DNA of 64,000 nt from Dictyostelium discoideum (GCA_000004695.1 CM000155.2:1056001-1120000), one strand, 5' to 3'. Counted from the first letter of the stretch, positions 7,213 through 56,768 are shown. The notes: generated from the letters alone by a model not told the origin. Numbers and translations are program-made.

Positions 7213-8401
7213 ATGATTCAAAAAGTTGGAATTATTGGTAGTGGTATAAGTGGTTTATCAAGTTATTATTATTTAAGAAATGGTATAAATTTAACATCAA
7301 AATTTTCAAAAAATAATTTAAAGATTAATATTTTTGAAAAATCAAATAAAGTTGGAGGTAATATTCAAACAAGGATAATTCAAGGTAAAAATAAAGACGA
7401 AAAGATAATTGTTGAAGAAGGACCAAGAAGTTTAAGAGCATTAGGTAGAGGATTAAATACATTAGAGTTTATAAAAAGATTAGGTATTTCAAATGATATA
7501 ATATTTAGTAGTGCAAATAGTAATGGTAAATTTGTACTATTAGATGGTAAACCAAAAGAAATCCCAATGACAAGTTTATTTGACATTATTAAATTCTCAT
7601 TCAAACATTCCATTGTAAGTTCAATACTTAAAGAACCATTTAAAAAAGTACCAAGCCAAGTTAAAGAAATGGATCCGAATTGGGATGAATCTGTACACGA
7701 TTTCTTTTCACGTAGATTAGGTAAAACAATGACAAAAACATTTATAGAACCAACAATACTTGGGATTTATGGTGGTGATTACACAAATCTATCGATTAAA
7801 TCTACTTTTAAAAGAGCAGCATTACTCGAACCTTTTGGTGGTTTAATTTTAGGTTCATTATTTAAATCTAAAAAACAAAAACAATTTGAGTTGGATTTAG
7901 ATAAAAATGAAAAACGTTTACTTCCATCTAAAAACGAATTAACTGAATTGTTTGATAAAGATACCGATAAAACAAATGTTTTCTCATTTAAAGAGAATGG
8001 ATTATCAAGAATGATACAAAAATTAAAATCTTTAATTGAAAGTGATAGTTTAACCAAACTATATTTATCAACAAGTATAGTTGAAATTGAAAAGGATGTA
8101 ACTAATGGTACATTAAAAGTCACTGATAATAAAGGTAATCAATATCAATATGATCAATTAATATCAACAATTCCATTGAATCAATTAGCACCAATGTTTA
8201 AAAAATCAGATTCAAAACTTTATCAACTTTTACAATCAGTTAATTATACTTCAATTGCAGTTATAAACTTAATTTATAAATCAAATAAAAATGTTGTAAA
8301 AATTATTAGTGATAAAGGATTTGGTTATTTAGTTCCATCAAAAGAGAACCAATCTGTAATTGGTGTTTGTTTTGATTCAAATACTTTTCCAGAATTTGTA
8401 A

Positions 8402-8437
<36 letters not shown>

Positions 8438-8811
8438 GTAATGAAAAAGATCAATCAATTATTACTGTTATGATTGGTGGTAATAATGGTATAAAAGATA
8501 GAAATGATAATTGGATTGATGTTACAAATACATCAAAAGATAAACTATTAGATATCGCTTTAAAACATTTAGATAAAGTTTTAGATATAGAATCATCACC
8601 TGATTTTACAAATGTTTCAATTTATGATAATGGTATTCCTCATTATAATATTGGTCACCAAAATTTAATAAATGAAATTCAAAATCATATTACTAAAAAC
8701 TATGGTACAACTTTACTTTTAGGTGGTAATTCAATTGATGGTGTTGGTATTAATGACTCAATTCATAAATCAAAACAATTAATTAATAGTTTAAAATTAT
8801 CAAATAATTAA
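7213..8811 (+). CDS. ppox: Protoporphyrinogen oxidase (PPOX, haem biosynthesis), 532 aa, single exon
   Basis: N-terminal FAD dinucleotide-binding fold KVGIIGSGISGLSS. The run EEGPRSLR...VHDFFSRRLGKTMTKTFIEPTILGIYGGDYTNLSIKSTF lines up with human PPOX ([39 protein letters not shown]). FGYLVPS matches FGHLVPS, and the C-terminal GGNSIDGVGINDSI matches GASYEGVAVNDCI. Confidence 0.88.
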
Positions 8812-10046: not shown

Positions 10047-12575
10047 TTAATTATCTCTTTCGTAAGCAATTTGAGTTGGAGAATCATTATTTAAATTTGC
10101 GGTTATTGTTGTTGAACTACCAATATTTGTAGTAGTAGTAGTATTATTATTACTATTTAAATTATTAGTATTTGGAAGTGGATATAATTGAATGATTTGA
10201 TTTGCAATTATATGAGAGATTGCATAAATTGTAATCATTGGGTTAACACCAACTGAACTTGGTAATACAGAACCATCGGCAATGAATAATCTTTTAACAT
10301 CCCAAGATTCACCATTTTCATTGACGACAGAATTTGATTTACTTGAACCCATTCTACAAGAACCCATTTGATGAGCACTAAGTATAACGGTTTGATTAGA
10401 TTTATAACCATTTGATTTAATTGCTTTAATATACTGTTCAATTGTATCTTGATTTCCAGGTTTAAAGCCACTAATTGGTATAGATGCTTCAATTGCACCA
10501 ATCTTTATCAATGCTCTTAACGATGCTTCAATTGATGGTAACATTGATTTCCAATCACGATCCGATAGTGTGTATTGAATTTTAGGGGATCTACCATCTT
10601 TATCCAATCTAATTTTACCAGGTACTGTATCTCTACAAATTGAAATGAATCCACTGTAATAACGTGCTTTCAACATTCGTTTCTTAAAATTGAATGAATC
10701 ATCCCACATGAATGCACAATTTGAACCAGATAGTGCGATATGGGAGTTGGGAGTCTCCAAGATTGAACCTGTATTCTTCCCACTGTTTGGTAATATTTTT
10801 TGATACTTTTTACTAATTACAGTCATTGGTGGGCCTTTCCAAACCTCAACTGGTTGTGTATGTTCACCAATGATTGGTACAACTGGATGAAGATATAAAT
10901 TGTTACCAATATTACTATTCTTAATTCTACTTTTTAACAATAAAGTTGGTGTATGTAATGCACCAGCTGAACAAACTACAATATGTGATTTAATAAAAAC
11001 TCTATATTTTAAACCATCTGGTGTACTAACATATGCAATTACACCATGCACTGTTTGACCACCACCACCATTAGTTGTTGTTGAGTTTGTTGGTATTGTT
11101 GTTGTTGTAATTTCTTCAGCTTGACAATTTGTAATTATTTGACCACCTTTACTACAACAATCTTCTAAATAAGTTACCATTGAACTTTGTTTTGATTTTG
11201 ATCTACAACCCATTGAGCAATTACCACATTGAGTGGTATCACAATTTTTAGTATTTCTTGGAATTGGTTGAGGATCAGCATCTAGTTCACGTAATGCTTG
11301 TTCAAGTAATTTATTGTTTCTATTATGTGCACCAGTACCATCTAGTGCGGTATCGATTGTATTTACATTTAATCTTGATGAAACTGAATCCATAGCATTA
11401 TTGAATTTAATTGAATCGAAAGCATTGGGACATTGTTTTCTCCATTCCTCCAAGATTATATCGGGTGTTCTGATTGAGGCTGTCCAATTAACGGTTGTAC
11501 CACCACCTAAACAATTTCCTGCTAAAATGTTTACTGATAGATCATCCGATGTTAAAGTACCTGCTTGTTCATAAAGCAATGGGAATGCTTCACTCTCTTT
11601 CCATGTCATATTATTGGAGGAGATGTAACTACCCTTTTCCAACACTATAACTTTATAACCTGCCTCGGCTAATAATGCCGCGGTTACACCACCACCAGCA
11701 CCTGAACCAATTACAACTACATCTGCTTTCAATGAAGTTTCCGATGTTATTTTTATAAATGATAATTTCTCTTCACCTGGTATTTGTTCAGGTGGTGGAG
11801 GTGTATCATATCCAACGGCATCCCAATTGGGATTACTTGTTTCACCCCTATCCCCAATCACTGAATAATATATCGATATTGCCAATGGTACAATGGCTTT
11901 AAATGCTTGTCTTCTAATTGGATTCGATGAACTTTTCATCATTGTTAAAACTTGTTGTCTACTTTTTAATGGTAAATTCACAAAACTACTAAATTGACCT
12001 GTCAATATTATACCTGCTCCTGTTGTTGAAAATAATCCTAATAATGTTTTTAAATCACTAATTTGACTTGAACTTTTAGTTGCTACAATTAATTTTAAAA
12101 AATGTCCTGCAACATCTAAATCTGATGATTTTCTAAAAAAAATAATAAAATAAATAAATAAATAAATAAATAAATAAATTATTATTAAAGTTTAAAAAAA
12201 TTATAAATTTTACCTTTTAAAATATTCTTTTAAAATATTTAATTGATGTTCTTTATGATTTTCATCAGAATTTTTTGAGTTTTTTGGTAATAGGTTTTCA
12301 ATTTCATTTAAAGCAATTTCAGAATCATCAGAGAATAATGTATCACATATAACAGTTAGGGTTTTATACTCTGTCAATGTGAATATCCCATTGGATTCTG
12401 TGTGAACATCATTTTTATTTGAATTTGAGGTTGTTGTTGTGGTTGTATTTGATGTTGGTGTTGATGTTGACATTCTATTTGAAATTAAATAGGTACTTGT
12501 AATAATAATTACAAATACTGTTAAAAATAAAATTCCAATTGAAAATATAATTTTTGTATTTATATGTACACACAC
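10047..12575 (-). CDS. GMC-family FAD oxidoreductase, long-chain fatty alcohol oxidase-like, ~815 aa, two exons: complement(join(10047..12132,12214..12575))
   Basis: Exon 1 (MCVHINTKIIFSIGILFLTVFVIIITSTYLI...) supplies a membrane anchor and ends AAAAG|GTAAAA. Exon 2 begins in phase 2 (R-KSSDLDVAGHFLKLIVATKSSS...) and carries the GMC N-terminal ADP-binding motif VVVIGSGAGGGVTAALLAEAGYKVIVLEKG, the CGNCSMGC motif typical of fungal/plant fatty alcohol oxidases, and the GMC C-terminal NPMITIYAISHIIAN. Confidence 0.8.
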
Positions 12576-13820: not shown

Positions 13821-14153
13821 ATGAACTCATCAAAGTCGATATCAAGTTCATCGACAATTCATTATCATCCAAAGAATAAAATTAAATTTATTCCATTTGG
13901 ATCAACGACAGCTAATTCAAGTTTTGATGATGAAGAAACAATAAATAACAATAATACCAATAACATAATAGTAAATAGTAAATCACCGATGTCTAATAAA
14001 ACAACAACAACAACAATAATAGATTCAAGAGATCAAAGCACTCATGTAAAAAGTAATAAATTAAATTTTAGCGATGAAATTAGTACAACCAATAAAAGTA
14101 ATAATAGTAATGGTAATAATATAAATGTAGAATATGAAGAAGAAATAAAAAAC

Positions 14154-14212
<59 letters not shown>

Positions 14213-15265
14213 TGATGATTATGACAATAGGTATGATGAAGAGGATCATCTTGTAGATTTTGAAGAAGATGATAAATTCTCATCTTCATCATCTTCATCA
14301 TCTTCATCAAATTCATTGTCAACTTTAGATCAACAACAATATAGCCAGCAGCATCATCATCATCATCACCACCATCATCATAAAAATTCAAATACATTGG
14401 TTGATAGTAGTGGTGGTAGTAGTAGTAGTGGTAGTAAATTATCATATACATTAACATTTATATTTGGTTTAATTGTTATATTTGCATGTATTTTTTATTT
14501 TTCAAAGAATTTAGTATCATTTTTAGAGTTTGTAAAAGAGTTGGGTTTATTGGGTAATGTGATATTGGGTATCGCATTCTTACCAACTGGTATACCATTG
14601 GCAATATTTAGTATATATATACCGTTGACATTATCAGCTGGTTTCATTTATGGATTCGTACCAGGTTTCATCACGGTTGCTATTGGAAGTGCAATCTCTG
14701 CAAGTTTTGGATTTTGGACAACTAGAAAATTATCTTTGAAATTCTTTGAATCAAAAATTGAACAATCACCAAAATTATCTTCACTAAGAAATAGAGTTGA
14801 ACAACATCCTTTCAAAATTATAATCATTATGAGATTATTACCAATTCCATTTGGTATTCAAAATGGTTTATGTGCTGTATGTGTATATTATTATTATTAA
14901 TATTAATATAGTAATACATAAAAAAATATTTACTAATAATTATTATTATTTATTAAAAGGTAACAAGAATTTCATATACAAAATTTATTTATTCATCAGT
15001 GATTGGGTTAACATTTGAAAATCTATTATTATCTTATCTAGGTAGTTCTATAAAATCAATAACAGATATTACAAATGGTCATCAAAATGCGTTTTCATCA
15101 TATCAACAAGGTTTAATTGCAATTGCGATTGTTGCTGCTATAATTTTAACTTGTATTGGTAAAAAGGTTTTATCTTTATCTGCTTATCATCAACCACTAC
15201 CTGTAACAATGAATGATATAAATAATAATAATAATAATGGTATTAATAATGAAAATAATAGTATT

Positions 15266-15920: not shown

Positions 15921-25998
<10,078 letters not shown>

Positions 25999-31782: not shown

Positions 31783-33433
31783 ATGATTATATTATTACTT
31801 TCAATTATTATTTTTATTTTATATATTGTAAAAATTGTAAGTATTCAAACAAAAATAAAAAAAATAAAAATAAAAAAATATAATATATTAATAAAATAAT
31901 AATTTTTTTTTTAAAAAAAATTAGTTTAAAAATAAATCATGTTGTGGTAATGAAATTATATTACCACCTGGACCAATTAGTTTACCATTTATTGGTAATT
32001 TACATCAATTAGCAATTGATCCACATTTAGCAATTCAAAAACTTATGTTTAAATATGGAAATGTTATGACAGTTTATTTCGCAAATATTAAAACTGTTGT
32101 AATATCCGATCCAAATTATTTAAAAGAAGTATTTGTAAATCAATCACATAAAACCAGTGATAGATATTTAATGGGTACATCTAGAATCATTGGTAATGAA
32201 AAAGATATACTCTTTTCAAATGGTCAATATTGGAAAAACTATAGACAAATCTTGGCTCAATCATTCTTAAAACTTAGAGACCATAAAGGTATTACCGAAA
32301 AGATTTCATTGGAATCTGTAAAGTTATCACAAGCATTTGAATGGTATGCCACCTCTGGTCAAGTGGTTAACCCATGCTCACTATTCAAAATGTATACATT
32401 AAATGTTATAATGCAATTACTTTATTCCCATCGTTCTTCTTACGATTTAAAAGGACAACATCCAATAATTGATGCATTAAAAATGGTTGAAGAATCATTA
32501 GCTGTTGGAAATGTACTCGATCTATTTCCAATTTTAAATATTTTCTTAAAGAAAAATAAATTAAAATTAGTTAATAATTTACAACAAGTTTGGTCATATA
32601 GTCAAGATTCAATTAAAGAACATAGAGAAAAATTATTAATAAATCCTGAAAAGTATGTTTAAATTTAAATTAATCAAATAATAATAATAATAATAATTTT
32701 AAATTAATCAAATATTAATAACTTTTTTATTTTTTATTTTTTATTTTTTAGAATTGATGATTTATTAGATTTATTTATTAATGAAATTAAATTAAGTAAA
32801 AATTCAGAATTTTTTGATGATGAAGGATTGTATAGAGTTTGTTCAGATTTATTATTATCAGGAACTGAAACTTCGTCATCAACAATGTCATGGTTATTAT
32901 TATTTTTAATTAATAATCCAAATTTTCAAGATAAAGTTAGAACTGAACTTTTGGAAGCAACTGGTGGTAAGAAAACAATTGGATTAACAGAGAAATCAAA
33001 AACACCTTTTTTCAATGCATGTATTAAAGAAGCATTACGTATTAGACCAGTTGGTGCATTATCATTACCAAGAATTGCAAGTGAAGATGTAACTTGCGGG
33101 CCATATACCATCGAAAAGGGTAGTCAAATAATAATGAATGTTTATGGTTTAGCTATGGATCCAACAGTTTGGGAAGATCCTGAAACTTTTAATCCATATA
33201 GATGGTTATCAAGTGATATCTCTCAATCAACTTACTCTTTCATTCCATTTGGTTGTGGTTCAAGAGTATGTGTTGGTTCATCATTAGCAAGAGATGAAAT
33301 TTTCTTGGGAATCGGTAATATTTTATTAAATTATATTTTCGAATCTCAAAATGGTAAACCAATCAATGAAAAAGGTCATTTTGGTATTGCTTTACAAACT
33401 GTTGATTATAATGTAAAATTAACTAAAATTTAA
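31783..33433 (+). CDS. Cytochrome P450 monooxygenase, ~487 aa, three exons: join(31783..31836,31925..32652,32752..33433)
   Basis: Exon 1 encodes only the membrane anchor MIILLLSIIIFILYIVKI|gtaagt. Exon 2 has the PPGPISLPFIGNLHQL proline hinge. Exon 3 has the I-helix AGTETSS, the ExxR in EALRIRP, and the haem-binding loop FGCGSRVCVGSSLA. Phases are consistent (AA|GTATGT ... ttttag|A). Confidence 0.9.
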
Positions 33434-33710
33434 TCAACCAAATCAAAAATCAATTTTAAAATATTTTTTTAAATAAAAAAAAAAAAAAAAAAAAAAAAAA
33501 ATATCTAATAATAATTGTAAATACAATCTTAAAAAAAAAAAAAGAAATAAAAATAAAAAATAAAAATAAAACAATTATTAAATTAATTCCTTATGTTATT
33601 TTTATTTTTATTTTTATTTTTAATACAATTTAAAATTATTTATTTAATTAATTTAATTAACTTTTTTTTTTTTTGTTTTTTTTGTTTATGTTTATGTTTT
33701 TTTTTTTTTA

Positions 33711-34140
33711 TTAATTAATTGTATCATCATTTGCAGAAATTTTAAGGAAAACATCTTCTAAACTTGTTTGACTAAAACTCCATTCTTGTAAATGATGATC
33801 ATATTTATGAGAAACCAAATATTGATACAAGTCAGAAATAACTGTATTCTTTGGGAAACGATAATTATAACTACCATCAAATGATTCGGTAAGAACTGCT
33901 TGTGGTGAGAATTTTGTAATTAATTCTGTTGGATTATGAGTATTAATATATGGTTCTTCAACATTAATTCTAACTGAATAACCATCACCAAATTTAGCTT
34001 TCAAATGATTTTGTGTACCAATACATTGTAATTTACCTTGTGAAATAATTGCAATACGACTTGATAAAACATCAGCTTCTTCCATTCTATAAATTAAACA
34101 AATTAATTAATTAATTAATTAATAATTATTAAAAAGATTA

Positions 34141-34230
<90 letters not shown>

Positions 34231-35785
34231 TATATTTATATACTTACGAATGTGTTGTTAAAATAATTGATCTATTCTTTTTTAAGTCATTAATTGTACG
34301 CCATAAATCCCTTCTCAATTCAGAAGAAATACCTGTGCTTGGTTCTAATTAAATTATTAAAAAAATTATTATTATTAGTAATTTTTTTTTATTTTTTTTT
34401 TTATTTAAAAAAACATACCATCAAGGAAAATAATTGAAGAATCACCAGTCATTGCAACAGCAAATGATAATCTTCTTTTCATACCACCACTTAATTCTTT
34501 AACTAATCTTTCTTTAACTTCAAAGAGGTTAACTTCTTTAAGAATACTTTCAACTGATTGAATTTCTCTTTCTGGTGGGACACCTTTTAGACGAGTAAAG
34601 TAAAGTAAAGTTTCAACACAACTTAAATCTTCCCAAAAGATATCGAATTGCATGGCAACACCAATTACATGATGAATATTATCCATATCATAACGAATAT
34701 CTAAACCTGCAACATGAGCAGTTCCAGATGTTGGTGTATATAAACCAGTGAGCATACTGATTGTTGTGGTTTTACCAGCACCATTTGCACCTAAAAATCC
34801 TAAAACCTCACCTTTTCTAACTGATAAATATAAATTATCAACCGATGGTTTTGGACGACCGACATAATGTTTTGTTAAACCTTCAATTATAACTGTCATT
34901 TCATTTGGATCATATCTACGATTGATAATCATTTCTTTTTCTTCTAAAACATCTTCATCTTCAACAATTTCTTGTTCACCATTATTATTTTCAACATCAA
35001 AATCTGCTGAATTAATTAAACTTGAAGTTTCACTAAATCTACGACCACCACCACTACCACCATTGATTGTATTTGATTTATCATTATCTTTATTTTTAAA
35101 TAAATTTAAAATTGGTTTTAAAAAGAATAATGGATGACTTGGTACACCAAATTCTCTTGGTAAAACTTGATCTAAATAAAGTGCTATTAATAAATAAACT
35201 ATTGCATCAATATATAACCAAAATATAATTTTTGACATTTCAAATTCCCATGTATATGCTGACCATTCTGGACATAAATCAATACCACATTGTGTACTTA
35301 ATTGTGACATTCCTCTATAAAATGCTAATAATGGTATCCAATAATACTTTTTTTAAAAAAAAAAATATTAAAATAAAATAAATAAATTAGTAAATAAATA
35401 AAAAGAAAGAAAAGAAAAAAAAAAAAAACTTACTGGTACTGGTGGAGTTGAATCTTTAAAAACTTGATAAGAAAGTATTGAATTTAAATTTACAGCAATA
35501 ATAACTAAAAAGTAACCAAAAATTGAAGCAGCACGAGTTTTTTTGAAAAATGTACTTAGGAAAAATGAAAAAGTAATCATTGAATTTCCCCATGCAAAAA
35601 GGAATAAAAACATTGCAAATTGTGATCCCTTTACAAAAACTGCAAATCCAAATATTGAACTAACACCAACTACAAATACAATAATAATAAAATAAATTAA
35701 AAAATTGAATATATAAGTCATAAACCAATAATTTCTAATCTTAAGACCCATCTAAATAAATAAAATAAATAAATAAAATTATTAA

Positions 35786-35875
<90 letters not shown>

Positions 35876-36837
35876 CTATTATTTATATATAATAATATAA
35901 TAATAATAAATAATAATTACCATTAAAGAAAGGTCACGTAATTTTTCTTGTTTTTCATAAACAATTGAATAAATAAATAATGGCATAATAAAAGATAGGG
36001 CAAATGGGTAGAATGAACCACCAAGTAATGAAGCGATATCAATTGTTGTACTTTGTTGATAGTATGGTAAAGTTGCAATATTCGATTTATAGATTGTACC
36101 ATTACCACCCAAGAAATAATTAAGTATTGTAGTTGTCATGGTATTCATTGAGAATGCAACGAATGCTTCGTATGGGTAGAAAGAGTATCTTGACTGCTCC
36201 TCACATTGAATTGTGTAATCCAATGACCTATTATTAACATTAAAATCATTGAAAATCAATGCTGAAAGTGGTAGAGTCTCTGAACTTAATGATTCAAATG
36301 TTGCATTCTCCTTCATTGCCAATATTTTATCATCCATATTTTCAACCGATGCGAATGGTACAAAGAATGGTGTATATGCCTTAAATGCTGGTATGTAAAG
36401 TTGAGGTGTGTAATTCAATAAACCACTACCACTGCCATCGGAATCTTTATACCCTATCTCTGTTATATTGTTTTCATTTACACTTAACATATATCCAAAC
36501 GTTAATGAATTATATTGATAAGTTGATGTTGAATTCATAAGTTTACCACCATTGGTTTGAAGTGATCCAATTTGACTTTTTACCCAAAAATTTACAATAA
36601 CTAAAATTATTACTAATATTAAAGGAATTGAAATTTGAACGCATAATGAACACTTTTGTCTTTTTATAAATGTTGCATTTTTAAAAAACTATTTTAAAAA
36701 AAAAAAAGTATGGTTAATATGTTGTATTTTTTATTTTTAAAAAAAAAGTTATCACGATTAAAAAAAATAAAAAATAAAAAACATACCATAGCACGAAACT
36801 GATTCGATTTATATTTTTTATCACTGGCACCCCACAT
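33711..36837 (-). CDS. Half-size ABC transporter, subfamily A (one TMD + one NBD), ~845 aa, six exons: complement(join(33711..34086,34248..34344,34419..35346,35434..35751,35921..36688,36787..36837))
   Basis: Exon 1 MWGASDKKYKSNQFRAM|gtatgt. The N-terminal anchor and large extracytoplasmic loop are typical of ABCA. The TMD exon begins MGLKIRNYWFMTYIF... (compare ABCA1 ...MGLDNSILWFSWFIS). Walker A is GFLGANGAGKTT, the signature LSGGMKRRLS, Walker B IIFLD|EPSTG (split by an intron), and the H-loop TTHSMEEAD. The summed exon length (2538 nt) is divisible by 3. Confidence 0.85.
34141..34230. repeat. (ATT)n microsatellite within an intron of the minus-strand ABCA gene; a second intronic (ATT)n lies at 35791..35875
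   Basis: Direct reading. Both sit between exons that I confirmed by splice phase. Confidence 0.85.
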
Positions 36838-36963
36838 TTTTTTTTTTTTTTTTTTTATATTTATTATCTATAATAAATATATTATTCTTATGAGGAGGTT
36901 TAGCCTTTTTTTTTTTTTGTTTTTTATTTTTTTTTTTTTTTTTTTTTTCTAATTAAAAAAAAA

Positions 36964-36995
<32 letters not shown>

Positions 36996-37221
36996 AAGAA
37001 AAAAATAAAAATTGTGGTATTTTTTCGAAATATATATAAAAAAAAAAAAATATCTAAAGAAAATTGTAACCTTATAAAAATTTTATATTTTTTATAAAAA
37101 ATTTGGAATACTCACAAGAAAACTTTTTCAAAACGCAAAAAAAAAATAAAAAAAAATAAAATCAATTAAGTTGTATTTATTTTGTACAACAAATTAAAAA
37201 AAAAAAGAAACTTTTTAATTT

Positions 37222-37255
<34 letters not shown>

Positions 37256-37281
37256 ATATATTAACATTAAAAAAAAAAAAA
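36838..37281. promoter_or_regulatory. Divergent (bidirectional) intergenic region, 444 bp, between the start codons of the two head-to-head ABCA genes
   Basis: Inferred from the positions of the two ATGs. The region is A/T-homopolymer-rich, as Dictyostelium promoters are; no specific element was identified. Confidence 0.4.
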
Positions 37282-40098
37282 ATGTCAACATATTCAAGAT
37301 ATAATGATGAAGATGAAATAAGGAATAATAAAATTTCATTTGGTGATAATATTAAAAGGGAATTTTTACATTTAAAATTATTATTAAAAAAGAATTTATT
37401 AGTCTCAATAAGATCATACTTTTCAACTGGTATTGAAATTTTATCACCTATTGCTTTTATTATAATTTTATTTTTAATTTCTCATTTTGGTTCTGGTAAT
37501 GAAAGTAAGCTAAAAAAATATATATATATATATATAAATAAATATATATAAATAATACTAATATATATATATATATGTGTGTTTTTTTATTTTAAAAAAT
37601 AAAAATAGATCCAATTGTAACATATAATCAAGAATTACCAATTTGTAAATCATATGGTGAAAATAGATGTTTTAATATTATGTTTTCACCAAGTAATTCA
37701 CCATCAGCAATTGCAATTATGGAAATGTTAGGTGAAATTAATAATAATAGTATTTATAGTTATCCAAGTGATACAGGTTATTTACCAGATTTAAACAATA
37801 CTATTGGATTAAAAGGTGGTTTAATTATGATGAATTCAATAGAGGATTCATTTGAATTTGTATTAGCACATCCAAATGTTACAATTGCAGCAGTTGATTT
37901 CTTATCGATTCCACTTGGATTTCAAATTAATGGTGCACCACCCAAAAATGAGCCATTGTTGAAAATGGATGGAAATTCATTGGAATTCAATGTGGTTGTA
38001 AATACAACATGCCCAAATATTTTAGCTACATGTCCGGATTATTCGATTGCGATAACAACAGCTATTGAAAAGGCTGTTATTACATATTACTCACAAAAGA
38101 TTAGAAATGAAAAGATACCACCACCAACAATCTCCTATGGCTCGAATGCGTTCCCACGTTATCCTCCAGAACAGGGGGCAGCAAGGGTTTGGGGTGGCTT
38201 ATTCTATTATTGCGGTTCAATGATATCATTCATATTTTTATTATACAAAGTGTCGTTTGAGAAAGAGAATAAATTGAAACAGGGTATGGTTATGATGGGG
38301 TTGAGTGTCAATCAGTATTGGATTAGTTGGTTCATTACAAGTTTCACCATTGATATATTGATATCGTTGATTACCATTATCGTTGGGTTGGCATGTCAAT
38401 TACCATTCTTTTTGGGTAGCAATTTCTTTGTATTGATAATCACATTTTCATTATTCACAATATCAATGTCATCAGTGGCCTTCTTCCTCCTAACCTTTAT
38501 TCAATCCACAAAGTCAGCAATAGGAATTGGTATGGGTATATTCATCGTTGGTTCAATCTTTCAATTGGTATTCAGTGGTATGGGTACTATGATCTTTGAA
38601 TTAATCTATCAAACCAACAGCAATGGTGCATTGGCTGCAAGAATTATACTTTTCTTTATACCAATGTTTCATTTCACTAAAGTTCTAACTGATATTGGTA
38701 ATGTTACAACAAACTATCCACTACTTACTTATAAGTTCTCTGATCTTTCAACAGATTTAAATATTGGTGGTACTGTATTGAAAACTGTAATTCCAACAAC
38801 TGGTCAATCAATTTGTTATCTATTGGCATTAATTGGAGTTTATACAGTATTGGCATGGTATTTCGAACATATTATACCAGGTAACGATGGTACATCCTCT
38901 CCACCATGGTTTTTTGTTTTACCATCCTATTGGGGTTTATCATTAAAGAAAGTACGTCATATTCCAACACCATATTTCGATGATGAGGATGTTAGAGCTG
39001 CAATAACCAAAGCACATGATGCTTCAAATCGTGCACCATTAATCATTTGTGGTTTATCAAAGAGTTATACTAAACTTTTCAGACCAAAGAAAACAGTTCA
39101 TGCCGTTAAATATTTATCATTATCCGTTGAAAAAGGTACAATTCTTGGTTTCTTGGGTTCAAATGGTTGTGGTAAATCAACAACAATTGGTATGTTAACT
39201 GGTTTACTTGAACCAACTGCTGGTGATGCTTTGGTCTATGGTCATAGTGTCATTAGTAATATTGCTGCCGTTCGTAGAATTACTTCAGTAGTACCACAAC
39301 ATGATATTCTTTGGGCAGAAATGACAGCTAGAGAACATTTACAACTATTCTCTGAATTGAAGGGTATCCCAGCCCAAGAAAGAGAATCTCAAATTCAAAA
39401 GGTTTTAGATCAAGTTAGATTATCAAAAATTTCAAATAACCTAATCTCAACCTATTCAGGTGGCATGAAAAGAAGACTCTCTGTTGCAATCGCTTGCATT
39501 GGTGATCCTAAAATCATCTTTATGGATGAACCTACCACTGGTGTAGATCCTTCCTCAAAGAGACATTTAATAGATTTAGTAAAGAGTATCAAAAATGATA
39601 AAGTAATAATTCTCACCTCTCATGATATGCATGAGGTTGAGATTTTGGCCGACAAAATCGTCATTATGAATGAAGGTGTAATGGCATGCAATGGTAATTC
39701 ATTACAATTGAAATCAAAATATGGTGAAGGTTATTCAGTTAATATCGTAGCCAAATCGCCCGAATCCATACCTGCTGTAGTTGAATTTGTAACTCTTTCA
39801 ATTCCAGGTTGTAAATTTATGAAACAATCCGCTTTACAATTAAATTTTGGTTTCCCTGTAACAATTGATCATCAAATCATTGCAAACTTTTTCAAACAAT
39901 TAGAAGAAATTACAAATGATCCAAATAATCAATTAATGAGAGATTGGTCTGTTTCACATTCTAGTATGTATTATAATATTTATATATATATTTTAAAATC
40001 ATTTTCAAGTTATATTAATCTTTTTTTTTTTTATAATTAAAGCATTGGATGATGTATTTTTAAAGGTTTCTCATTTAGCAAAATTAAAAACACAATAA
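37282..40098 (+). CDS. Half-size ABC transporter, subfamily A, ~877 aa, three exons: join(37282..37504,37609..39963,40043..40098); a paralogue of the adjacent minus-strand ABCA gene
   Basis: Same architecture as its neighbour. Walker A GFLGSNGCGKSTT, signature YSGGMKRRLSVA, Walker B IIFMDEPTTGVD, H-loop LTSHDMHEVE. The C-terminal exon TLDDVFLKVSHLAKLKTQ* is reached via the donor A|GTATGT and acceptor ttaaag|. The N-terminal exon resembles its neighbour's (...IRNNKISFGDNIKREFLHLKLLLKKN vs FFKNATFIKRQKCSL...). Confidence 0.85.
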
Positions 40099-41222: not shown

Positions 41223-41304
41223 CGACATCGGCAGGGTTCGAACCTGCGCCTCCTAGGAGATTTGATTTCAAGTCAAACGCGTTAGACCACTTCGCTACGA
41301 TGTC
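41223..41304 (-). tRNA. tRNA-Ser (anticodon UGA), 82 nt, with a long variable arm
   Basis: Minus-strand sequence GACATCG TA GCG AAGTGGTCTAA CGC G TTTGA CTTGAAA TCAAA TCTCCTAGGAGGC GCAGG TTCGAAC CCTGC CGATGTC G. It has a perfect 7-bp acceptor stem, a D-arm, a 5-bp anticodon stem with the loop cU-UGA-AA, a 13-nt variable arm (class II), and a T-arm with TTCGA. CCA is not encoded. Confidence 0.85.
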
Positions 41305-45828: not shown

Positions 45829-47010
45829 CTCTTGAAATATATTATAGCTATTGCAGCAGCTTATTCAAGTGGTAGTGAAACAATTTTATGTCCATTAGTG
45901 AATCATTGTGAAAAAGTTAATGAATGGGTTGAAAATAATGATGTTCCATATGCAAAATTCAATTGTCATATAACAAATATTGGTAATACACCAATTGGTA
46001 ATGTTGTAATGAGATTATCTGGTGATGGTAAAACTAAAGAAGTTTGGGAAATGGAAACAAAAGATAATGGTCAAACCTATAATTTCCCTCAATGGAGACA
46101 ACAACAACAATTAGCATTTAACCAATCTCATCCATGGGGTTACACTGTTCAAGGTGGTAAAGAATTAAATGTTAATTTATGTGGTGGTGCAACACCATAT
46201 ACCAATAATTTACAATCAAATCAACAAACTCAAACTCAACAAAAATCATCCGATATTGTTTGTAACCTTTCAAATAAATGTACAGTTTCAAACCAATGGA
46301 AAAACGGTGACCAAGTTAATACACAATATAAATGTTTTATAACCAATAATGGTAAAGTTCCAGTATCATTCATTGATATTCGTATAAATGGTAATAGTGA
46401 TCTTTACAATGTCTGGGAAATCATAACACCAAATAATGGTTTATCATGGGATTTAACATCTTGGAGAATTGACAAACCATTAGAAGCTACCCAATCTCAC
46501 GAATGGGGTTACATCATCGTCGGTGATAAACCATTAGATATCCAAGTTTGTCAAAATAGTCCAATCCCAACTGTCACTCAATCACCATCACCAATTTCAT
46601 CAAATAAACAACAAAAATCAATTGTTCAACAAGAAGAAGCTGATGGTTCAAGTTCAACTACTACTACCACAACCACCACCACCAATCAAGATCAAGTTGT
46701 TTGTACAGTCTCAAATAAATGTACAGTTGAAAAGGAATGGAAAAATGGTGAACAAAAGAATAAACAATATAGTTGTGAAATCACAAATAATGGTAAAGGT
46801 CCACTCTCACATGTCGATATTCGTCTTAGTAATAACAGTGCTCTTTACAATGTTTGGGAAGTTTATACTGTAAACAATGGTCTCTCTTTTGATGTCTCAC
46901 CATGGAGACTCGATAATCCAATTCAACCAGGTCAATCTCACTCTTGGGGTTATATCGTCAATGATGATGTTGCTTTAGATGTTAAAGTTTGTCAAATGGG
47001 TACAAACTAG
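45689..47010 (+). CDS. Secreted protein with three tandem ~105-aa Cys/Trp-containing repeats (Dictyostelium cellulose-binding/CBM-like domain) separated by Gln- and Thr-rich linkers, ~403 aa, two exons: join(45689..45737,45848..47010)
   Basis: Signal peptide MNWKKITTMGVMVLAS|gtatgt, which continues in phase (G+CT = Ala) as ...AIAAAYSS. The repeats are CPLVNHCEKVNEWVENNDVPYAKFNCHITNIGNTPIGNVVMRLSGDG...VWEMETKDNGQTYNFPQWR...SHPWGYTVQGGKELNVNLC; CNLSNKCTVSNQWKNGDQVNTQYKCFITNNGKVPVSFIDIRINGNSDLYNVWEIITPNNGLSWDLTSWRIDKPLEATQSHEWGYIIVGDKPLDIQVC; and CTVSNKCTVEKEWKNGEQKNKQYSCEITNNGKGPLSHVDIRLSNNSALYNVWEVYTVNNGLSFDVSPWRLDNPIQPGQSHSWGYIVNDDVALDVKVC. The linkers are QQTQTQQKSS and [14 protein letters not shown]. 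Confidence 0.6.
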
Positions 47011-50406: not shown

Positions 50407-51408
50407 TTCATTTTAAAAAAAATAGAACTTTAACAAATGATGAAATGTCAAATTCATCAATTGTAAATGAAATAACATCAACAATTGTAGAATGGGCAAC
50501 ATTATTAAAGATTTATTCAACTGGTAAACAATATAATGAATTTAAAGTTTTATCACAAAAGATATCACAATTGGTTCAATATAGAAATCAAATTTTATTA
50601 TATAAATCACCAAAAGAGATTACCTATGATTTACGTGATCGTATTCTTTCGGTCATTGATGAAGGTAGAAGAGATACAGGTATGACTATAGTTTTAAGAA
50701 AAGAGATTCCAAATACTTATAGTTCATTAGCATGTCAACAAGCATCTCAAAGAACCAGTATAAATATACCACCAACGGTAGCAACTGATTTGATTTTAGC
50801 AGATGCTGAAAATTCAGGTGTTTTCACACTTTGTACAATGTATCAAGAAAAGAAATTAGAAATTGTAGCTCTAAATAATAGTTTTAGAGATTCATTTGAA
50901 TATGATTCTTTAGAAATTAGTGGAGCTAATTTAAATAATAGTTTAAATAATGTAAATAGTAATAACAATAACAATATAAATAATTCAAATATAGCGGCCG
51001 CCGGAGGATTACAATCATCCTTATCGACAAATAATTTATTAAATGGAGCCAATGTAATATTATCACAATCACCATCACCAATGAACTCATCATCAACTGC
51101 AACATCATTATCACAACAACAATCACCAAATTCTTCATCCATTGGTCAATCACCAATTTCATCAGGTCAATCATCACCAACCAATTCAAGTTCAACTACA
51201 TTACCAGGTTCTTCACCTTCAAATGGTAATAATATATTGGGTAGTTCAATGAATGGTGGTGGTGGTATTGGTGGTGCTAATGGTTCACCATTATCAAATT
51301 CAAATAAAGATTTACAATTTTCATCATCACAATCACAAACATCAATACTTCAACAAACTCAATCACAATCTCAATTAATACAGCAACAACAACAACAATC
51401 ACAACAGC

Positions 51409-51440
<32 letters not shown>

Positions 51441-54269
51441 GTTCAATATTCATCATCACCGTCATCTCAATCTTCATCATCATTTTCATCATCACCAGGT
51501 AATTCCTCATTTTTATCATCAAAATTAAATAAACAGGGTAGTTCAAAAAATTTTTTATCAAATGTATTATTAAAGAGTAAAGGATCATCATCATCAACAT
51601 CATCACTTTCAATGAGTGGTGGTATGTTACCACCATCAAATGGTTCACCAAATGGTTTAAATTCAAGCGGAGGATTTTCAAATCATGGTAATGGTCTATC
51701 AAATTCAAACAATGGAATTCAACCATCCTCATCATCATCATCATCTCCATCATCTTCATCACCTTCCTCTTCTTCAATGGTTAGCTCTTCATATGTGTCA
51801 GTATCAGCTCAATCACCATCATCAATATCTTCACCAAATGTTAATGGTGGTTTAAATCAATCATTATCATCATTAAATTTAAATTCACCAATTTTATCAA
51901 ATTCACCAAATAAAAAAATGCAAACTATAAAAATGAAATCTAGACAATATTTATTACAACAACAACAGATTCAACAACAGCAACAACAACAACAAGGTGG
52001 AAATAGTAATAGCAGTGGTGGTAATAGTAATAATAATAATAATAATGGTGAAATGATAACGAAATTTAATTCACAACTTTTAATATCATTAAATAATTTC
52101 TTATATTCATCTGGCGATAATATTGATATTGTATTATCAATTTATAATAGATCAGAGAATAAATTCCTATCAGAGAGTTATTGTGGTATTGTACCACCTC
52201 ATGGTATTTTTGTTGAACCAGAGAATCCAAATGAAAGAATTAGAACAATCTTTAGAGATTTAGAACTCAAGGATTTAAATTCCGATTTATATTTAGTGGC
52301 TAAACTTTACAGAAAAACCAATTCACTCTCATCAAAGGATCCAAATTCATCACCAACATTAACTCGTTCAAATGCAAATATGTCAAGTAGTTCAAATTTA
52401 AATAATCTTGGTGGTCCAACTAAATTGTTTAGAAAATTTGTTGGTTGTGGTGTAAAGAGATTAGATCTTTCAAATGAAGGTGTTAGTGAATTAATGATTA
52501 CATTGAATACCACTAGTAGTGAAAATAATTTTTATAATCTTCATGAGCAAATTATAAATGAACAAACTACAATCTATGAACCAATTACTAGAGCTAAAGG
52601 TGTTGTTTTTACAGTTCAATTATTCACTGGTGATTATCAGCAATTCCTTCAAGAGTTTCCAGATTTTAGAAGTGTAACTACCTCTTTAAAATTACAATTA
52701 CCAGAGGTGGTTTTACCTGGTGGTGAAAGAAATGATATGTATATTCAATTGGAGGAAGGGGATTTCTCTGATAAAAACATTGAGGTACAATTACAAGTTC
52801 GTACTGAATCTGGTCAAATCATTCATGATGCAATTAAATTTGCAAATGGTCAATCATCAACTAGTGAATTTAAAACCCCACTTATTCCATCGGCACTTTG
52901 TAAATGGAATGAGATTGTAAAGATTTGGGTAACTGCAAAAACATTTGAAAAATCTCATCTTTTCTTTTTATTCAGACAATGTTCAGAAAAGAAAGATAAA
53001 GAGAGACAAACCATTGGTTTCGGTTATTTGAAATTTATGTCTGATGAAGGTTCTATCATTAAGGATCAACAATATACAATAAATGTCTATAAATCCAATA
53101 CCGATGATGTACCAGTTTCAAGTTATATCAATGGTGGTGTTGTAGATAATGAGAAATCAAGTAAATCAACAAAGAAATTAGATTCAATTAAAGTTAGAAC
53201 CACTTTTGTATCAAATTGTTTAACTCAAAATCCTTCGGTTGTGAATTTATCAAGATGGCAACAATATGGTGGCGATTTGTCATCGTTGATTAAGGATATC
53301 ACTTTCTTAAATTCTCAAGATCTTGTACGTAATCTTCAAGAGATCTTTTATAATTTCCTCTCAATTTTAGATCAACAATTGAATGATTCACCCCTATCGA
53401 TGGAGATTTTCCGTGCAATCGTTTTCATCATTGGTGTATTGGTCGAGAGTAGGACTTCAAATTATCGTCCAGCTTTAGATCTTTACGCTTCAAAATATTT
53501 TGGTACACCATTATCAAGCTCAAATAACAAACAAGACTCTTTCACTGGTATCACTGCACATACTCATTTACTTCGTTCCGTTGTAAAGAATTTAGAAAAC
53601 TTTGAAATACCTGCAAACGCTTCAAAAATTAGTTCATCTTTGAAAGCTTTGGAATATATTTTCAAGTTGGTAGTTGCTTCAAAAACTAAATTCACTGCAA
53701 ATAAAATGGATACTTTGGGTGGAAGCAATAATGAATCCTATCAAACCAATCTAAAGAGTGTAGTCGATATACTTTGCGAGATTATGTTAAGTGGTTCACC
53801 ATCTTTAATCGGTGCTAAAACTATAGCTTTAAAAAATTTCGAATCAATGTTTACAGATTTAAAGAAATTCTTTACAGTTGAAGAAATGGGTATTATAGCT
53901 TTGAAATTCATGAAATCCATTCAACATGATGAAAAGAAGAAAACTTTTTCAATCTTAAAATTGAAATTACTCTCCTCCTATATCAATGGTCCAATGATGT
54001 TATGTAAAGAAACTAGAAAACAATTATTACCATTGGTTTTCCAATTATTACATTTCCATTTTAGTAAATCAAGTGAAGAAACTGATATGTGTTTAATGAT
54101 CTTGGGTTTAATCGTTGATATTATGATTACTAAATCTGAATTACGTGGTAAAGATAAAGATCCTTGGTTAATGGAAATGTTACATTTCTTTGTACCAATT
54201 TTAGAATTATTACAATTATTAAATAATGGTAATAATATTAATAATTTAACTACTACAAATAATACAACC

Positions 54270-54304
<35 letters not shown>

Positions 54305-54766
54305 AACAACTACTACCACTACTACAACTACAAATTCAACAGTTGATGAAAAACGTAAAAGTTTATCATCAATTACATCACAATTATCAATAATGATTTC
54401 AACAATGAATGAAGAAAATCAAAATAATTTACGTATTAAAATTTATGCATTCATTTTAGGTACTGCTAGATTAAGTGGTGTTCAACATTGGGAGATGGTT
54501 AATAAATCAGTTACACAATTAAACAAAAACTTTTTCATTAATCTTTATGATAGTTTACAATTAATTTTTGAATCACCAAAATTCCCATCTGATTTTTGGA
54601 CATTTACAGTTTTCCAATTAAAAACAATTCTTAGAATGACTCGTATTTTAGAAGATGTAATATTTTATTTACCTTCAAATGTTGTACCAGCTGCAACTGC
54701 AACTGCAACTTCAACTTTAACAAATAATAATAACAATAGCAATAATAATAATAGTATTACCATCAC

Positions 54767-54811
<45 letters not shown>

Positions 54812-56768
54812 TATTGGTTCAAGTGCAAATACTGGTGGTAGTGGTAATAGTTTAATTAATCAAAGTCAATTTGAATTTACTCAATGGAGATCATTCTTTT
54901 TATTGACAAGTTCATATTTAAATTGTAAAGATTTACAATTTGAATCTGTTAATCCAGCAAAAGCAGTATTTATTAAAACTAGATGTGGTGATGTTAGAAT
55001 TGAAATGGCAAGAGTATTTGAAAGAGTTTGGGCAACAGTACCAATTAAAGAAAGATCAACCTTTATACCAGTGCTAATTGGACCAATTGTAAAATTATCA
55101 ATTAGTGATACTATGGATGCAAAACGTGTAGCAACTAAAATCTTTTATGATATGTTAGAGAGTGAAATCATTCAAACCAATGGTTACACTGATTTATTCT
55201 ATCATACTATCGATTCATTATTGGAGATTTCAACTGAACGTTTGAATAGAAAAGGTTGGCCAATAGTTTGTCGTAGTGTAGATGGTAAGCTACCATTTAC
55301 CCTAAGATCATTCTCAACCTTTTTCAATGTTAAATGTATGTCTTTGGTTTTAAATAAATCAACCGATGCTATCAAGACCAAATCAGAACAATTCATTCAT
55401 GATATCAACCATTTCCTTTATTTAATCACCTCCTTTATGAATGATGTAAAGAGTGGCGATGAAGAAGAGATCTTTTCATCAGTTTCAAAATTATTATATT
55501 ATCTTCAAGAACATAAACGTACCGCTCATTTCATTAGATTCGTTCATATGACAAGTAGAAGACATTACGAAATGGGTAACTATATTGAGGCGGCCGTGAC
55601 TCTTATGTTACATGCTTCACTCTACCAATGGGATGCCAATAAAGTAATTGCTCAAACTGCCTCAGAATATGGTTCTTTCCCTGAACAAAAAGAATCTGAA
55701 CGTAAAGAATTACTCTATAAGGAGATATTGTTATGTTTTAATAATGGTAAGGCATGGGATAGAGCAATTCCATTGGTTAAAGAGTTGGTTCATCATTTCA
55801 CTATGAACATTTGTGATATGAACTCCGCTGCTACTTATCTTCGTCAACAAGGTGCTTTCTATCAAAAAATCAATGAATCTGCCGATCCAGTTTTCGAGGA
55901 TTATTTCAGAGTAGGTTATTATGGTAAAGGTTTCCCAAGTTCAATTCAAAATAAAGAATTCATCTACAAGGGTAATCAATTTGATCGTTTATCTGATTTC
56001 ATTTCAAAGATTCAAGATAAATGGCCAAAATCTGAGCTACTTAAAACCACTGAGGTTCCTTCTCAACAAATTCAAGATTCCGATGGTCAATATCTTTTAA
56101 TCACCTCTGTAAACATTTCAAACATTGGTGAAACACAAAAACGTCATGATAGTGCAAACGCTGAATCTATCACCAACAAGAAACGTGTACCACATCGTGT
56201 TCAACAATTTAATGCTCGTAATAAGGTCAATGTCTTTGTTTATAGTAAACCTTTCAAAAAGAATGCCACTGCCACTAAATCTCAAAATGAATTTGAAGAT
56301 CTTTGGGTAATGAACCTATACTTTGTTTGTGAAAATTCTTTCCCTTGTACAGAACGTCGTTGTTTAATCGTCGAACGTAAACAAGTTGAAATCTCACCCA
56401 TTGAAAATGCCCTCAACTCAATCGTTCAAAAGAATGATGAATTGGCCGCTAGAATCGATAGACATCAAGCAAACACTCAAGAATCCATTAGTCCTTTAAC
56501 AATGTTATTAAATGGTATTATCGATGCCTCTGTAAATGGTGGTGTTAGTCGTTACGAAACCTTTATGAGTGAAGATTATCTCAAACAAAATCCAGAATAT
56601 AAAAATATTGCTGAACTCTTAAAATCTGCTCTTGATCAACAGTTAGTTATTGTTGAACAAGGCTTAAAACTTCATTCTCAATTACGTCCACCTGAAATGG
56701 CTGCTATGCAAGATAAATTAGAAACTTTCTTTATAACAATGAAAAATTCAAGACAAAAATTAAATTAA
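49862..56768 (+). CDS. DOCK-family Rac/Cdc42 guanine-nucleotide exchange factor of the DOCK180-like subfamily (N-terminal SH3, DHR-1, DHR-2), ~2221 aa, three exons: join(49862..49952,50068..50299,50426..56768)
   Basis: Exons 1-3 MASVSSSSSRLSVSTPRKLDEWTNVTKTGI-(G|gtatgt)-VLFPFNATHKFQLPLSVGDFVQIHAQTSQEQIGWYSGVSVTTQESGIFPQSFVVILPEQTD... form an SH3 domain (compare DOCK180 ...[35 protein letters not shown]). IVNEITSTIVEWATLLKIY matches DOCK180 LIQEVTTTLREWSTIWRQLY. The C-terminal DHR-2 segment FEDYFRVGYYGKGFPSSIQNKEFIYKG...DLWVMNLYFVCENSFPCTERRC matches the conserved catalytic DOCK segment (YFRVGFYGKKFP...). The three-exon sum is 6666 nt, which is in frame. Confidence 0.88.
54259..54330. repeat. 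(ACY)n codon repeat encoding a ~25-residue poly-Thr tract inside the DOCK gene
   Basis: Direct reading: ...[29 protein letters not shown]... Confidence 0.85.

Follow-up and report, generated by a model that had tools for sequence, protein, structure and literature searches.

What should be made of two half-size transporters of the ABCA family that are transcribed away from each other across a few hundred base pairs, with a cytochrome P450 gene close by? The question is raised by positions 31783-40098 of a 64,000-nucleotide stretch of Dictyostelium discoideum DNA (GCA_000004695.1 CM000155.2:1056001-1120000, hereafter the window), which belongs to chromosome 6 of strain AX4. A first-pass annotation had read the three genes as a co-regulated locus for the handling of sterols, lipids or xenobiotics, in which the two transporters, abcA9 and abcA1, were probably an inverted tandem duplicate whose products could form a heterodimer. 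The reading that we favour, and to which we would give a probability of roughly two in three, is that abcA1 supplies the first half of a full-size ABCA (the first transmembrane domain and nucleotide-binding domain, TMD1-NBD1) and abcA9 the second (TMD2-NBD2), such that the two would work together as a “split” full-size transporter.

The gene models were assembled by hand from open reading frames (ORFs) and canonical GT..AG introns, and an exact-sequence look-up placed their products on a contig of 3,602,379 bp in D. discoideum AX4 and identified them as cyp516A1 (DDB_G0292168; Q54DT2/XP_629790.2), abcA9 (Q54DT1) and abcA1 (Q8T5Z7). The P450 gene, cyp516A1, occupies 31783..33433 on the plus strand in three exons (31783-31836, 31925-32652 and 32752-33433) and encodes 487 amino acids, of which residues 32-483 match Pfam p450 (E = 8e-100); the translation carries an N-terminal PPGP hinge and an FGCGSRVCVG haem-Cys motif of the FxxGxRxCxG haem-thiolate type. 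Its stop codon is separated from that of abcA9 by a convergent 3′ spacer of 277 bp (33434..33710, 7.2% G+C). On the minus strand, abcA9 (33711..36837) has six exons (36837-36787, 36688-35921, 35751-35434, 35346-34419, 34344-34248 and 34086-33711) joined across GT..AG introns and encodes 845 amino acids. The head-to-head spacer at 36838..37281 (444 bp, 10.1% G+C), presumed to be a bidirectional promoter region, leads into abcA1 on the plus strand (37282..40098), whose three exons (37282-37504, 37609-39963 and 40043-40098) encode 877 amino acids. The A/T richness outside exons is typical for Dictyostelium, with G+C at 7–12% in spacers and 2–12% in introns against 27–32% in coding sequence. Two introns of abcA9, intron 2 (35752-35920, 169 bp) and intron 5 (34087-34247, 161 bp), are near-pure (AAT)n microsatellite of 2–3% G+C, far longer and simpler than the remaining introns of 74–104 bp. 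Beyond these three genes, the 64-kb window holds no further ABCA or P450 gene. The rebuilt models, the exact protein matches and Pfam together bear out what the first-pass annotation had said of the genes, their coordinates, their orientations and the half-size ABCA type; the 444-bp length given for the divergent region was also exact, but the gap between the P450 gene and abcA9 is 277 bp rather than 280.

Both transporters have the half-size ABCA architecture, namely a loop-bearing ABC-2 TMD followed by one NBD. The abcA9 protein runs from the first transmembrane segment (TM1) through an extracytoplasmic loop and the TMD to its NBD (ABC2_membrane_3 over residues 30-436, a single ABC_tran over 549-691), with a weak match to the R domain (R1_ABCA1), and abcA1 gives ABC2_membrane_3 over residues 51-492 and a single ABC_tran over 575-718. 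The top solved-structure matches of both are ABCA3, ABCA4, ABCA1 and ABCA7, with E values of ~1e-107 to 1e-134 and scores of 363–451 bits, compared with at most 153 bits for any other ABC protein of solved structure. The statement that the two share the same architecture is thus correct for domain order, which is identical, but not for exon structure, since abcA9 has six exons and abcA1 three, their first exons span 17 and 74 codons, and not one intron position is held in common.

The degree of relatedness between the two proteins settles the matter of duplication. At the protein level, abcA9 and abcA1 are 30% identical and alignable over 654 residues only, their N-terminal loop regions giving no alignment, whereas abcA9 is ~60–63% identical to the unlinked abcA7 and abcA1 is ~58–59% identical to the unlinked abcA8. 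In neighbour-joining trees, abcA1 and abcA9 are grouped as sisters in 0/200 bootstraps when only the NBDs are used and in 0/200 when whole half-units are used. Because the two neighbours are so much less similar to each other than to unlinked members of the family, and because they are never sisters, a recent inverted duplication is already refuted by these comparisons, with the wider caution for annotators that neighbours of the same family need not be recent tandem duplicates. Each protein also has its own orthologue, at ~50% identity, in Heterostelium, Acytostelium, Cavenderia and Polysphondylium violaceum; in Tieghemostelium, an orthologue at ~50% identity was listed for the abcA9 type only, and the abcA1-type partner was confirmed separately.

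The origin of the two genes becomes clearer when they are compared with the two halves of full-size ABCAs. In an exhaustive HMMER search of 1.84 billion representatives, abcA1 retrieved two dictyostelid orthologues, followed almost exclusively by full-size ABCAs, whose best match lay in the N-terminal half in nearly every case. When NBD regions only were compared, abcA1 scored higher against NBD1 than against NBD2 in 125 of 137 full-size ABCAs, and A1-like proteins in general favoured NBD1 in 122–129 of ~137, the median difference being +27 to +45 bits. A whole-half test, in which the halves of 131 full-size ABCAs were scored against the A1-like and A9-like partner of each species, separates the two more fully: N-halves preferred the A1-like partner in D. 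discoideum (117 of 131), Cavenderia (118), Acytostelium (111) and Heterostelium (90), and C-halves preferred the A9-like partner in the same four species (115, 127, 131 and 131, respectively). The C-halves likewise preferred abcA7 to abcA8 in 123 of the 131. For the closest full-size proteins, the preference is sharply reciprocal. With P0116, the A1-like protein of Heterostelium reaches 401 bits on the N-half and 232 on the C-half, where its A9-like partner reaches 309 and 469; the corresponding values are 424/217 and 250/428 bits for P0115 and 382/196 and 278/336 bits for P0118 (Thecamonas trahens XP_013757381), and P0117 shows the same reciprocal preference. abcA1 is therefore assigned to the N-terminal-half type (N-type) and abcA9 to the C-terminal-half type (C-type). 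A candidate line of support, the position of the best-matching stretch of abcA9 in the C-half of Protein Data Bank (PDB) chains, was marginal (208 vs. 198 bits for ABCA3) and is not relied on.

A tree of half-units (neighbour-joining, 123 units, 600 columns, 200 bootstraps) resolves into two sides that correspond to these types. Every A1-like protein falls on one side, together with 44 of the 45 N-halves and half-size proteins from Endostelium and elsewhere (support 193/200); every A9-like protein falls on the opposite side, with 44 of the 45 C-halves, the m51a1 proteins and the plant half-size ABCAs (190/200). Within this division the topology is mirrored: the five full-size proteins whose N-halves lie closest to the A1-like clade (P0115, P0116, P0117, P0118 and P0127) are also those whose C-halves lie closest to the A9-like clade, as would be expected if a single full-size ABCA were divided between two genes. 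A search for relatives of P0116 gave Thecamonas and Chloropicon as the named ones, and the predicted full-size counterpart subfamily of the pair occurs in these two and in other protists. Half-size proteins of the N-type were found in dictyostelids, in Endostelium zonatum (P0195) and in a few other records.

The linkage of the two genes is conserved in most of the group. A divergent, adjacent A1-type/A9-type pair is present in six of the seven other dictyostelid species examined, namely Acytostelium subglobosum (spacer of 549 bp), Heterostelium album (215 bp), Cavenderia fasciculata (503 bp), Tieghemostelium lacteum (396 bp, with the type of the partner confirmed), D. purpureum (438 bp) and D. 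firmibasis (438 bp), the exception being P. violaceum; in two EukProt proteomes, adjacent gene numbers suggest a similar head-to-head arrangement. The neighbours of the pair vary from one to another of the five more distant genera, and those of D. discoideum are retained in D. firmibasis. Since the flanking genes vary in this way, the pair is the sole piece of gene order that is conserved across genera. In several new Dictyostelium assemblies, an apparent rearrangement (abcA9 and abcA1 locus tags 14–16 apart, with those of the P450 gene and abcA1 consecutive) proved to be an artefact of numbering, as the D. firmibasis genes are adjacent despite tags that lie 16 apart. An alignment of four divergent spacers, from D. 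discoideum, D. firmibasis, D. purpureum and the abcA8/abcA7 pair, revealed no credible conserved motif in what is low-complexity A/T sequence.

The pair has also multiplied as a pair. On chromosome 2, abcA7 (A9-type) and abcA8 (A1-type) are themselves head-to-head across a 510-bp spacer, and when each partner family is given its own tree, the split between A9 and A7 and that between A1 and A8 both fall within group-4 Dictyostelium. Two splits inside the same group, together with the divergent arrangement of abcA7 and abcA8, mean that both genes were duplicated together, and in every dictyostelid checked the number of A1-type genes equals that of A9-type genes.

Taken as a split full-size ABCA, the locus can be given a plausible history. 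Before the Dictyostelia radiated, a full-size gene would most likely have undergone fission, and one of its halves would have been inverted; fission is preferred to a relic that was never fused because the dictyostelid clades are nested inside full-size clades (in distance trees only). A later duplication of the whole unit within group-4 Dictyostelium would then have given rise to abcA7/abcA8 on chromosome 2. The 444-bp A/T-rich spacer may act as a bidirectional promoter that gives the two genes matched expression, their products would assemble as an abcA1/abcA9 heterodimer, in parallel with one of abcA8 and abcA7, and by analogy with other ABCAs the substrate that is moved could be lipid-like. 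Physical heterodimerisation of abcA1 and abcA9 is what we infer from this pattern, and the suggestion of the first-pass annotation that the divergent genes could encode a heterodimer gains in weight from the complementary N-type and C-type halves, the conservation of the head-to-head arrangement across the Dictyostelia and the duplication as a unit. In the one functional study that was found, transcripts of abcA7 and abcA9 reportedly peak at 0 h, in growing cells, and abcA7- and abcA9-null strains are among many ABC mutants with subtle phenotypes; abcA1 and abcA8 mutants do not appear in its list (PMC3743828). If the split reading is correct, the subtle phenotypes of these single knock-outs should be re-read with both the partner and the redundancy of the paralogue in mind.

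The catalytic motifs are compatible with such an assembly. Walker A, the Q-loop, the signature, Walker B (D-E) and the H-loop are canonical in abcA9, in abcA1 and in essentially all of the 31 aligned dictyostelid sequences, and the signature reads ELSGGMKRRLS in A9-like and TYSGGMKRRLS in A1-like proteins, both of which look functional. With canonical motifs in both partners, both ATP sites of a heterodimer would be competent, as they are in a full-size ABCA. A separate observation concerns the D-loop, at the NBD dimer interface, where the A9/A7 proteins of the D. discoideum clade (abcA9 residues ~694-697) carry STGIS or STGLS in place of TGLD; this D-to-S change is lineage-specific, the aspartate being kept in D. 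purpureum and all other genera.

The P450 gene, on the other hand, probably is a lineage-specific, unrelated neighbour that stands outside the functional unit. It adjoins abcA9 in D. firmibasis and, to judge by locus tags, also in the D. discoideum species complex; it is not a neighbour of the pair in D. purpureum, Tieghemostelium, Heterostelium, Acytostelium or Cavenderia, nor of abcA7/abcA8. The tail-to-tail orientation of cyp516A1 and abcA9 rules out a shared promoter. In a published series, cyp516A1 rises from ~0.2–0.4 reads per million at 0–6 h to 4–11 at 10 h, and its induction reaches ~200-fold (log fold change of 7.7) by the last time point (PMC11367525 Table S1), a pattern opposite to that of abcA9 (PMC11367525 vs. 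PMC3743828). The papers searched contained no literature on cyp516A1 function. The notion of a co-regulated P450/ABCA locus is thus not supported, given the convergent orientation, an adjacency that is confined to the D. discoideum/D. firmibasis lineage, and published expression that is late for cyp516A1 and highest at 0 h for abcA9. For annotation in general, a P450 gene beside a transporter gene need not mean a metabolic cluster.

The remainder of the window can be described briefly. A tRNA-Ser(UGA) gene was called by ARAGORN on the minus strand at 41223-41304, ~1.1 kb downstream of abcA1, and the same program gave a doubtful “tRNA-Tyr” with anticodon ATA on the minus strand at 14781-14865, inside an ORF at 13821..14900. 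Pfam matches mark a USP9X-like ubiquitin hydrolase (17395-25998, an ORF of 2867 amino acids), a DOCK-family guanine nucleotide exchange factor (GEF; 50445-56768, an ORF of 2107 amino acids), a CBM49 carbohydrate-binding protein (45832-47010), a GMC oxidoreductase (10047-12005) and a flavin amine oxidase (7213-8811). These five genes have no obvious tie to the ABCA pair; the CBM49 gene also lies close to the D. firmibasis orthologue of abcA1.

Several results weigh against the split full-size reading and must be set beside those that favour it. With NBD regions only, A9-like proteins are near neutral between NBD1 and NBD2 (median of -9 to +4.5 bits), and an NBD-only tree places them among the NBD2s in just 65/200 bootstraps; this ambiguity means that the C-type assignment rests on TMD and NBD together. 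Alone among the pairs tested, the chromosome 2 pair fails the N-half test, as just 40 of the 131 N-halves score higher with abcA8 and 91 score higher with abcA7; the probable reason is that abcA8 (P0109, locus L006 6657-9490) evolves fast, apparently faster than any of the other three half-transporters. All of the trees are of the neighbour-joining kind with a simple distance correction, rather than maximum likelihood. A degenerate ATP site was sought in the aligned dictyostelid NBDs as a signature of heterodimers, and none was found; asymmetry of the ATP sites is typical of many obligate heterodimers. In P. violaceum, the orthologues lie on different contigs (L008 8001-10438 and L009 8001-11042) with no ABCA neighbour at either, and since the two genes are unlinked yet intact, the linkage must be dispensable, which makes this species a natural test of how much linkage matters. 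Lastly, m51a1 (two proteins) and plants have half-size ABCAs of the C-type for which searches, as distinct from surveys of those genomes, returned no half-size partner of the N-type, so that A9-type halves may be able to homodimerise.

These last points are the substance of an alternative that we regard as unlikely but deserving of a serious hearing, in which abcA1 and abcA9 are two independent, homodimeric half-transporters with different substrates, and their adjacency is an old accident kept by a compact bidirectional promoter or by neutral inertia. In its favour are the intact but unlinked genes of P. violaceum, the plant half-size ABCAs (all C-type in the tree, with no plant protein among the N-type halves returned), which may work without an N-type half, and the canonical NBDs of both partners, which would make symmetric homodimers feasible in principle. 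Against it are the facts that the partners are of complementary types that mirror the halves of the same full-size proteins, that their adjacency has survived in six of seven other species even as the flanking genes came to differ between genera, and that the pair was copied as a pair, with copy numbers that remain equal. The interpretation offered by the first-pass annotation, a lineage-specific inverted tandem duplication joined to the P450 gene in a sterol, lipid or xenobiotic cluster, can draw on the presence of three genes within 8.3 kb, on the identical ABCA domain order and on the retention of the P450 neighbour in D. firmibasis. Set against the 30% identity within the pair and the ~60% identity to unlinked paralogues, the absence of any sister grouping or common intron position, a P450 gene that is convergent with abcA9, missing beside the pair in five genomes and beside abcA7/abcA8, and induced late in development when abcA9 peaks at 0 h, it is scarcely credible.

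A different kind of alternative accepts the pairing and reverses its history. The N-type and C-type genes might be a pre-fusion relic, retained in the Dictyostelia (and in Trichomonas), rather than a product of fission. In Trichomonas vaginalis, too, genes for N-type and C-type ABCA halves are linked as inverted pairs (PMC3378599), full-size ABCAs have been proposed to derive from the fusion of two distinct halves (PMC2984421), and other protists have half-size proteins of the N-type (Endostelium P0195) and of the C-type (m51a1). The nesting of the dictyostelid clades inside full-size clades in both mirrored subtrees favours a derived fission, the fusion of a head-to-head pair would be impossible without an inversion, and the sister subfamily of full-size proteins has a wide distribution (Thecamonas, Chloropicon), all of which leave the relic as a very doubtful proposition. 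Somewhat bolder, and in our estimation improbable, is the idea that the pair might be a surviving ancestral eukaryotic arrangement, shared by descent with T. vaginalis, from which full-size ABCAs arose by inversion and fusion. In a weaker form, the split architecture would have evolved independently at least twice, which, if true, would mean that the halves of ABCAs are modular and that selection favours placing both genes under one divergent promoter.

The split full-size reading finds its nearest precedent in T. vaginalis, which has ten linked inverted pairs of ABCA half-transporters, each with one N-type and one C-type member (Kay et al. 2012, PMC3378599). As in the Dictyostelia, linkage is inverted, one member groups with the N-terminal and the other with the C-terminal NBDs of full-size ABCAs, the members are closer to genes of the same type elsewhere than to their linked partner, and the pairs have multiplied as pairs. 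The two systems differ in that the C-type member of T. vaginalis has a degenerate signature motif, whereas both dictyostelid partners are canonical, and in that the ten pairs of T. vaginalis are accompanied by no full-size ABCA, whereas D. discoideum, with its two pairs, reportedly has full-size as well as half-size ABCAs (PMC2984421). With the genes already annotated and the T. vaginalis precedent at hand, the dictyostelid pair is a further instance of a known arrangement, and the pairing itself may have had an earlier mention. What is distinctive of it, on the comparisons made here, is the combination of two apparently canonical NBDs with a documented conservation, a co-duplication and a phylogeny that mirrors a specific full-size subfamily. 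As a second lineage with linked N-type and C-type halves, the Dictyostelia would bear on the proposed “heterogeneous” fusion origin of full-size ABCAs.

Among plants, the half-size ABCAs (ATH) are similar in length and ~32% identical to abcA9, and all those sampled (P0051, P0053 and P0056) are placed with the C-halves in the tree; most half-size ABCA NBDs are reported to be nearer to C-terminal NBDs (PMC4649718). The plant proteins differ from the dictyostelid genes in that no plant protein is among the N-type half-size proteins that the searches returned. The full-size ABCA1, ABCA3, ABCA4 and ABCA7 share with the pair an ABC2_membrane_3 TMD with a large loop after TM1, the same NBD motifs and a trace of the R domain, and abcA1 aligns best with their N-half and abcA9 with their C-half, the nearest subfamily being that of the T. 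trahens protein already named. The difference is that these are one polypeptide of ~1,600–2,300 amino acids, as opposed to two divergently transcribed genes. To our knowledge, the structurally and functionally characterised ABCAs (ABCA1, ABCA3, ABCA4 and ABCA7) are all single polypeptides, whose size, ~1,700–2,300 residues, hampers manipulation. A natural split ABCA in a tractable haploid amoeba would allow the N and C halves to be separately deleted, tagged, expressed or swapped (abcA1/abcA9 vs. abcA8/abcA7), and with separable halves of this kind it could be asked how the N and C halves of an ABCA, which are not equivalent, work together.

The closest mechanistic model for abcA1/abcA9 lies outside the subfamily. 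ABCG5 and ABCG8, which form the sterol exporter of animals, are encoded by head-to-head half-transporter genes with a short, shared intergenic promoter, and their products are an obligate heterodimer. The likeness is that of divergent half-transporter genes across a short spacer. ABCG5/ABCG8 belongs to the ABCG subfamily, with the reversed NBD-TMD order, and has one degenerate ATP site, unlike abcA1/abcA9, in which both sites look canonical; and where the heterodimer of ABCG5 and ABCG8 is proven, that of abcA1 and abcA9 is the one that their complementary halves, conserved linkage and shared duplication would predict.

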